This document shows, in pieces, positions 20,119-20,316 of a DNA stretch of 45,057 bases. Under the pieces are notes generated by a model. It ran no database searches and had not been told where the DNA came from. It saw nothing but the letters and a program-made list of their open reading frames with translations. Both the position numbers and the translations under genes were made by a program. The stretch lies in the sequence record PP925821.1; one strand, 5' to 3'. The stretch comes from Escherichia phage Eeyore. The stretch's first letter is position 1, and each line of letters opens with the position of its first letter.

Positions 20119-20316
20119 GTCGACAGAAAATTAAAGCCAGTTATCTAATCTACGCTCCTCCTATCTGGAGGAATTTTCGCTTGAGAAATGGGCGGCTGGA
20201 GGGTGTTGTAGCACCCGGCCAGCCATCAGCTCATGCTTTCAGGTCACAAGCTAACCAAGGCCCACTGCTTTAGCGCAAAAGCATAGTGAGCCTATCAGAG
20301 TTACGCTTACGGATCT

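Follow-up and report, generated by a model that had tools for sequence, protein, structure and literature searches.

A conserved four-helix RNA element in the leader of a phage N6-adenine methylase gene, a candidate cis-antisense RNA

In the SOS-linked type I toxin-antitoxin systems SymR/SymE and IstR/TisB the antisense promoter is situated at the start of the toxic gene and the antisense RNA, encoded in cis or nearly so, blocks the translation initiation region. The locus contains a LexA box through which LexA represses the promoter of the toxin gene, and the antisense RNA is made constitutively. Antisense transcription also tunes restriction-modification genes which are harmful when mis-expressed, as in EcoRI and Eco29kI. 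These antisense RNAs originate from reverse promoters inside the genes and are unstructured transcripts; we know of no report of a conserved multi-helix fold among them. DNA methyltransferases of the M.EcoGII family are used as research reagents and, to our knowledge, how phages control them has not been described. M.EcoGII methylates adenine in any context, harms cells if constitutively expressed and is silent in lysogens; the enzyme of phage 1720a-02 is a close homologue (PMC5778455). In phage lambda, OOP is a short cis-antisense RNA which was proposed to down-regulate its target together with RNase III (PMC2327240), and the oop promoter region contains a LexA-binding sequence (PMC5869508). 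AgvB and AsxR are anti-sRNAs of EHEC prophages which are located in convergent pairs in the moron region that follows Q and PR' (PMC4104026).

Here we examined the leader of an M.EcoGII-family gene of Escherichia phage Eeyore (PP925821.1). The whole stretch of DNA analysed, 45,057 nucleotides, is referred to as the window. A preliminary description had pointed out a nested, GC-rich hairpin in this leader and had offered a processing site, an antitermination element or a small-RNA fragment as its role. The features of the locus are collected in Table 1. The position of the terminator behind Q would suit a tR' which ends a short leader transcript of the PR' type, an arrangement known from other lambdoid phages. 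The two ORFs of 185 and 53 aa are probably morons which stand in place of the usual small ORF. The terminator which follows the 53-aa ORF is symmetrical (A7-stem-T8).

Table 1. Features of the methylase locus in the window. For the element and its helices the strand is the one suggested by the asymmetry of the fold.
Feature	Position	Strand	Remarks
DUF968 protein	17118-18179		
Q antiterminator	18180-18893		Pfam PF06323
Terminator behind Q	18987-19006		about 95 nt past the Q stop codon
ORF, 185 aa	19098-19655		no Pfam match
ORF, 53 aa	19904-20065		no Pfam match
Bidirectional intrinsic terminator	20087-20116		ends the upstream moron on +; first strong terminator for a minus-strand transcript
Small hairpin, then ATTTTCG	20156-20172	+	counterpart of the terminator hairpin 5' of the element in relatives
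Whole RNA element (R1)	20181-20300	-	P1/P2/P3 three-way junction plus P4; about 120 nt
P1, first strand (TGGGC on +)	20189-20193	-	pairs with 20260-20264, closes the three-way junction
P2 (hairpin of the preliminary description)	20194-20199/20219-20224 (outer), 20201-20205/20212-20216 (inner), 20206-20211 (loop)	-	
P3 hairpin	20226-20254 (20226-20235/20245-20254)	-	
P1, second strand (GCCCA on +)	20260-20264	-	
P4 hairpin	20266-20283 (20266-20271/20278-20283)	-	loop AGCGCA on +
Spacer, element to methylase ATG	20301-20316		near-invariant (G)ATC at 20312-20315
Methylase, 350 aa	20317-21369	+	M.EcoGII-family beta-class N6-adenine DNA methyltransferase; Pfam N6_N4_Mtase, E = 5.9e-44
Candidate promoter	20321-20348	-	-35 TCAACA 20348-20343, -10 TATTTT 20326-20321
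LexA (SOS) box TACTGTAAATATAAACAGTG	20325-20344		inside methylase codons 3-9
Terminator after the methylase	21374-21393		
Lysis genes	from 21438		

The hairpin string GGCTGG-A-GGGTG-TTGTAG-CACCC-GG-CCAGCC was found in the window at 20194-20224. Its end had been placed correctly, while the start had been set at 20191; the extra GGC is part of another helix. As RNA, the hairpin consists of an outer stem GGCUGG/CCAGCC, an internal loop of one plus two bases, an inner stem GGGUG/CACCC and the loop UUGUAG. The minimum free energy (MFE) was -23.5 kcal/mol; 200 dinucleotide shuffles gave -14.6 +/- 2.5 (z = -3.6), and not one of them reached this stability (0/200). This bore out the nested, two-tier fold. 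The location in the methylase leader was right as well: the 3' end of the hairpin lies 93 nt 5' of the ATG at 20317, and the hairpin is downstream of the terminator which ends the upstream moron. It does not qualify as an intrinsic terminator. As described, no T-run follows 20224 on the plus strand; on the minus strand only GCCCA and then UUUC come after P2/P1, and this arrangement was reported neither by the terminator scan of the window nor by that of relatives. The hairpin is real, but it does not stand alone. It is one helix (P2) of an element with four helices.

RNAalifold, applied to 91 distinct leaders, revealed a long-range helix around the hairpin, UGGGC/GCCCA (P1; 20189-93/20260-64). 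P3 and P4 were added by inspection afterwards. The element exists as an RNA fold of about 120 nt, in which P1, P2 and P3 meet in a junction and P4 follows, and its helices covary. In an alignment by MAFFT only (A2, 91 sequences) 87.5% of the cells were paired, and 13 pairs displayed double changes compared with 7.6 in shuffled and 3-6 in slid controls. In a model-fitted alignment of 85 distinct sequences (A4) 89.2% of the cells were paired and 23 of the 32 pairs had double changes (shuffled 10.7, slid 4-9). Model-fitted alignments are biased towards structure, a bias which is held in check by the MAFFT-only result and by the slid controls. An independent, divergent set of 36 distinct sequences from metagenome and viral contigs (A5) had 85.1% paired cells against 66.8% after shuffling, double changes in 27/32 pairs, where shuffling gave 18.3 and sliding 8-15, and a covariation score of 0.442 vs 0.140. 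P1 was almost invariant and 99-100% pairable (100% in the 85 sequences of A4), with two compensatory events, G-C to A-U in locus L017 and C-G to G-C in Gilliamella (L073). Double changes affected 8/10 (A4) and 10/10 (A5) pairs of P3 and all six pairs of P4 in both alignments. As to P2, which was paired in 96% (A4) and 89% (A5) of the cells, the covariation check suggested in the preliminary description turned out positive: the hairpin is conserved in related phages, is kept in more than 120 distinct relatives and carries compensatory changes in 7/11 (A4) and 10/11 (A5) pairs. A covariance model built from 80 sequences scored 140.7 bits at 20181-20300. With this model, Vibrio phage-plasmid loci (E ~1e-9 to 1e-11) and Gilliamella (E ~1e-4) were recognised as carriers of the element too. 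Other pairings were tried and discarded. A pseudoknot GGUCA(20242-46):UGAUC(20311-15) and a helix AUCAG(20294-98):CUGAU(20310-14) were without compensatory change, the latter with 27 C.A cells. A hammerhead-like three-way junction was dismissed on inspection because of misfitting junction lengths (0, 3, 7 nt) and sequences.

A search of Rfam 15 (4227 models) at gathering score returned no match on either strand of the window and, in particular, no family for the hairpin or the element. At E <= 10, the region 20181-20316 gave only noise matches (MIR5241, P26; 12-14 bits), and at gathering score and at E <= 10 nothing relevant was obtained with the local region and a Vibrio relative. Sub-threshold matches at 20022-20184 to amino-acid leader and sRNA families reflected terminator shape only. 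ARAGORN found 0 tRNA or tmRNA genes in the window. The models of AgvB and AsxR (RF02702/RF02703) did not match at E <= 10 in 18850-20400, and the prophage sRNAs AgvB, AsxR, STnc100, Esr41 and Pas were rejected as candidates because they did not match and differ in position and size. A search of the literature accessible to us with the core 12-mer and on the theme of antisense RNA, methylase, LexA and prophage yielded nothing relevant. Therefore, we consider the element to be an undescribed RNA family, one among the phage regulators of harmful genes which act as cis-antisense RNAs or as leaders.

Next, we consider the distribution of the element. A sensitive blastn search with the leader identified 56-57 phage records, and every match was located directly 5' of the same methylase. 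The leader is shared by SfV, cdtI, mEp460, phiP27 and Stx2a, Stx2c and Stx2d phages, by Klebsiella, Citrobacter, Morganella, Providencia and Hafnia phages and by phage 1720a-02. In most records the matches began at 20182-20186 (further upstream in three) and ran to the ATG. With nhmmer the element was detected in 141 of 167 methylase loci (160 fetched from genomes and viral contigs plus 7 phage loci), in a fixed register ending at the start codon; besides Enterobacterales, the carriers include Vibrio and Gilliamella. Among 5426 complete E. coli genomes 1086 contain the element, and the annotation there reads only 'DNA-methyltransferase'. The search was also carried out from the RNA side, i.e. 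a DNA pattern for the element was run on viral contigs, with at least 120 loci. Among the matches listed (at least 120), 112 elements were followed at once by the methylase, two ended at a contig edge and six were Vibrio-type loci with a Com-like ORF between element and methylase; an element without methylase was not among these viral-contig loci. The identity of the element to the window was 0.66-0.97 compared with 0.28-0.50 (0.74 in one close relative) at the four-fold degenerate sites of the methylase, which are largely saturated in this comparison. Judged by these identities, the element is under purifying selection and not a passive passenger.

Coding capacity was examined and rejected. 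The ORF which starts with the ATG at 20188 encodes 7 aa in the window and extends to about 31 aa in mEp460 and to 47 aa in L015. Because 1-nt indels are frequent and shift the frame, and because the length of the ORF varies, a leader peptide was excluded. The ATG itself, at the 5' edge of the element (AUGGGCGGCUGG, 20188-20211), is invariant, which we attribute to P1; its seven-codon ORF ends in the P2 loop. In relatives it has 31-47 codons and sometimes an ATGA overlap with the methylase start, and the frame is not conserved. A small winged-helix ORF of 63-67 aa (...CQLILTQLVMAGL...) precedes the element in 108 of the 141 loci (e.g. L001 2778-2981, L003 2784-2981, L005 2304-2498) and is called TrmB- or MotA-like in some records. 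In many inspected relatives a terminator-like hairpin carries the stop codon of this ORF in its loop. The window does not contain a homologue of this ORF but two unrelated ORFs in its place; therefore the element is independent of it.

The Vibrio relatives have further features in their leaders. In the Vibrio phage-plasmids an ORF of 38-45 aa which resembles the Mu Com zinc finger (MTKLIELRC.KCGAKL...KCKRCK) is inserted between element and methylase (L069 2362-2487, L245, L267, L181 and others), and the SD sequence of the methylase is in a hairpin after this ORF. A second conserved leader motif, termed motif B, has the form (A/C)(U/A)GC-CUUGAGUACCUGAGAC-[variable hairpin]-AGAGG(A/G)A-GC(A/U)(U/G) with covarying stems and had no Rfam match. 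It was located about 110-130 nt before the methylase ATG in L072, L074-L080 and L082-L084, and directly 5' of the element in L069-L070, L181, L245, L260, L267, L282 and L284. In Vibrio, Aliivibrio and Psychromonas a LexA-box promoter is situated 5' of motif B, and a terminator-like hairpin and UCAAGGC, which is complementary to the 5' part of the motif, are 3' of it.

The next question was which strand folds. Compensatory changes cannot discriminate the strands, wobble pairs can because the complement of a G.U pair is an A.C mismatch. In terms of the plus strand, the non-Watson-Crick cells of A4 comprised 244 A.C vs 39 G.U, and those of A5 105 A.C (14 columns) vs 27 G.U (6 columns). The asymmetry was concentrated in P3, of which 74.7% (plus) and 97.3% (minus) of the pairs were canonical in A4, and 71.7% and 86.6% in A5. 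The corresponding plus/minus values for A4 and A5 were 100/100 and 98.9/95.6% in P1, 96.4/96.0 and 88.6/95.1% in P2, and 91.0/94.2 and 90.0/93.0% in P4. P3 runs unbroken through 10 bp on the minus strand, where three of its pairs are G.U; the plus-strand counterpart is interrupted by three A.C mismatches. The plus-strand mismatches are a tandem C.A/A.C in the middle of the helix in the enteric type and A.C elsewhere in Vibrio and Gilliamella; in Providencia the same positions are Watson-Crick paired. The energy of the consensus structure was lower on the minus strand in 79/85 (A4) and 34/36 (A5) sequences; in the Vibrio types it was -26 to -28 (minus) compared with -6 to -13 (plus). Single-sequence MFE predictions contained P3 in 90% (minus) vs 15% (plus) of the sequences and P2, which is stable on either strand, in 93-95% on both. 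RNAalifold gave -37.4 for the minus and -27.2 for the plus strand and recovered the three-way junction on the minus strand only. Similarly, the minus-strand MFE structure of the window was the covariation-supported fold, that of the plus strand did not match. As a control, the neighbouring plus-strand motif in Vibrio loci was inspected; it has G.U and not A.C pairs on the plus strand. Pairs which favour the plus strand were an outer U.G pair of P1 in 7 sequences (A5), a G.U at the base of the inner P2 stem in 14 (A4) and the pair 20259-20292. Taken together, the comparison indicates that the fold was most probably selected on a minus-strand RNA. Because it is better paired on this strand, we favour a reading of the element as a cis-antisense RNA. 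Of the three roles which had been proposed for the hairpin the small-RNA fragment was nearest, but the strand analysis points to an antisense RNA of the minus strand and not to the mRNA leader.

Could such an RNA be initiated here? The LexA box matches the consensus in 17 of 20 positions, and the window holds two such sites compared with 0.00 expected. Among 86 distinct 5' ends of the enteric type nearly all retain CTGT...(A/C)CAG, and the synonymous sites do not vary; the box is shared by enteric relatives and by those from Morganella, Providencia and Hafnia. Several element-bearing lineages, in which the methylase lacks the N-terminal codons that carry the box, are without it. The second box of the window, TACTGTATATGTATACAGTC (2 mismatches), is at 3131-3150 between a 160-aa ORF on the minus strand (2811-3293), which may be DinI-like, and plus-strand ORFs of 79 and 106 aa; it is near an integrase (4021-5214), and a third site, CTGT-N8-ACAG, is present at 3941-3956. 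A weight-matrix scan proposed a weak candidate for a minus-strand promoter in which the 16-nt spacer between the -35 and -10 hexamers is the core of the LexA box. Its hexamers are sub-consensus and shift between variants, roughly one in four of which has a weakened -10; a promoter scan of the window at consensus threshold did not report a minus-strand promoter at this position. Going by the candidate -10, the antisense RNA would start near 20314-20315, inside the near-invariant GATC. The RNA would by construction be complementary to the leader from -17 to -136, whereas the start site would determine whether it also covers the AUG and the 16 nt before it. At the other end, 75 of 115 relatives were without a minus-strand intrinsic terminator within 290 nt after the element, and none was consistent; what is found on the minus strand 3' of the element in relatives is only GCCCA followed by UUU(U)C. 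Because the downstream gene varies (methylase with LexA box, methylase without it, Com-like ORF), an antisense promoter would be needed in each context. A plus-strand promoter for a leaderless methylase mRNA was rejected, the best candidates start downstream of the ATG.

On balance we consider it likely that the element is a cis-antisense RNA directed against the methylase leader. Its promoter would be situated at the 5' end of the methylase gene or slightly within it, and the RNA would run back across the leader, with a length of roughly 130-230 nt. By pairing with the SD-less leader just 5' of the start codon it might block initiation or trigger cleavage and so limit translation or stability of the methylase message. 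The toxic methylase would then stay off, or limited, until strong Q-dependent late transcription overrides the antisense RNA. In this phage lineage the LexA box over the candidate promoter would place the antisense RNA under SOS control, as has been proposed for lambda OOP. Minus-strand transcription, the transcript ends and a repressive effect are what we infer from sequence comparisons. A more far-reaching version, which we regard as rather unlikely, is that of a structured RNA 'antitoxin' for a DNA methyltransferase, a new class, in which the junction binds a protein or a small molecule (the methylase, a SAM-related ligand) or resists decay. RNA and methylase might then constitute a toxin-antitoxin-like module in lambdoid late operons and Vibrio phage-plasmids, which in some lineages would be tied to the SOS response through LexA.

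The main alternative, possible though in our view less likely, is that the element operates on the plus strand as a cis-regulatory leader in the late mRNA and controls translation of the downstream ORF, for which the spacer before the ATG 20317 does not provide an SD sequence. It could be an operator which binds a protein or ligand, or a structure which places the ribosome. The position of the element would be equally expected of such a leader: it is always on the sense side, directly past the upstream terminator and 11-19 nt before the start of the methylase or the Com-like ORF, and in Vibrio loci it directly follows a plus-strand leader motif. For P1, P2 and P4 the two strands hardly differ in pairing, and G.U is seen on the plus strand at the outer pair of P1 and at 20259-20292. 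The latter pair belongs to a possible alternative helix, 20259-61/20290-92, which would compete with P1; however, in this extended P4 it is the single covarying pair. P3 is hard to reconcile with a plus-strand leader, being only 72-75% canonical on this strand with mismatches, almost all of them A.C, that shift along the helix between lineages, a pattern expected of G.U pairs on the minus strand. The very poor plus-strand consensus energy in the Vibrio types points the same way. Moreover, an expression platform was not found, i.e. there is neither a terminator nor an SD nor a covarying helix that sequesters the start, and no riboswitch or leader family of Rfam matches.

A site for RNase processing or antitermination in the late transcript, as considered in the preliminary description, might be suspected from a stable, GC-rich nested hairpin without U-run in a long polycistronic late operon. 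Yet the conserved unit is a four-helix element and not a long duplex of the RNase III type, and nothing emerged in support of processing. Antitermination lacks support too: the element is downstream of the terminators that would have to be overcome, and a testable resemblance to nut, put or qut-type sites was absent. Q already renders the polymerase terminator-resistant, and a polymerase modified in this way needs no such RNA. In addition, the strand asymmetry favours the opposite strand. We consider both roles highly improbable. We give hardly any credence to the notion that the element has no function as an RNA and is conserved with the methylase module or acts as DNA, be it a protein-binding inverted repeat or a structure in single-stranded DNA. 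The sharp edge of conservation at a mosaic junction (20182-20186) would agree with it, and folded single-stranded DNA also tolerates G.T wobbles. However, the element is far more conserved than adjacent synonymous sites, its stems change sequence while pairing is kept, unlike those of a protein-binding repeat, and the strict adjacency to a start codon has no rationale in a replication-type DNA structure.

The feature is considerably more interesting than a lone hairpin would be, with a mechanism and a transcribed strand which we infer. The element is a widespread, unannotated regulatory candidate which occurs in roughly one in five complete E. coli genomes, Stx2 prophages included. It supplies testable handles on the control of the methylase, i.e. 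specific stems, a LexA box and a strand prediction. It is suitable for RNA family databases and would improve the annotation of the 'moron' region from Q to lysis, which is also the site of the Shiga toxin genes.

How does the element compare with the systems described above? AgvB and AsxR are similar in that they are small RNAs of prophages from the same moron region downstream of Q. They are, however, Hfq-bound sponge RNAs of 51-60 nt with a conserved 3' part of 42 nt. The com-mom operon of Mu is comparable: its last gene also encodes a toxic DNA-modification enzyme, and layered control exerted on a structured leader, as would apply here, keeps it off. The Vibrio relatives share a Com-like zinc-finger ORF with the Mu arrangement; an ORF of this kind upstream of the methylase is absent in the window and was seen only in Vibrio-type relatives. 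In Mu, the Com-binding hairpin and the translation-inhibition structure are on the plus strand and unrelated in sequence. Lambda OOP is a phage cis-antisense RNA convergent with a phage mRNA and has a LexA site at its promoter, a likeness which presupposes that the element is transcribed as predicted. OOP is a 77-nt RNA made up of a hairpin and a terminator and overlaps the 3' end of cII; the element, in contrast, comprises about 120 nt with a three-way junction, faces a 5' leader, lacks a clear terminator and is unrelated to OOP in sequence. The proposed logic also resembles that of SymR/SymE and IstR/TisB, from which it would differ in the place of the LexA box, here over the candidate promoter of the antisense RNA, and in the 'toxin', a DNA methylase of a Q-dependent late operon.
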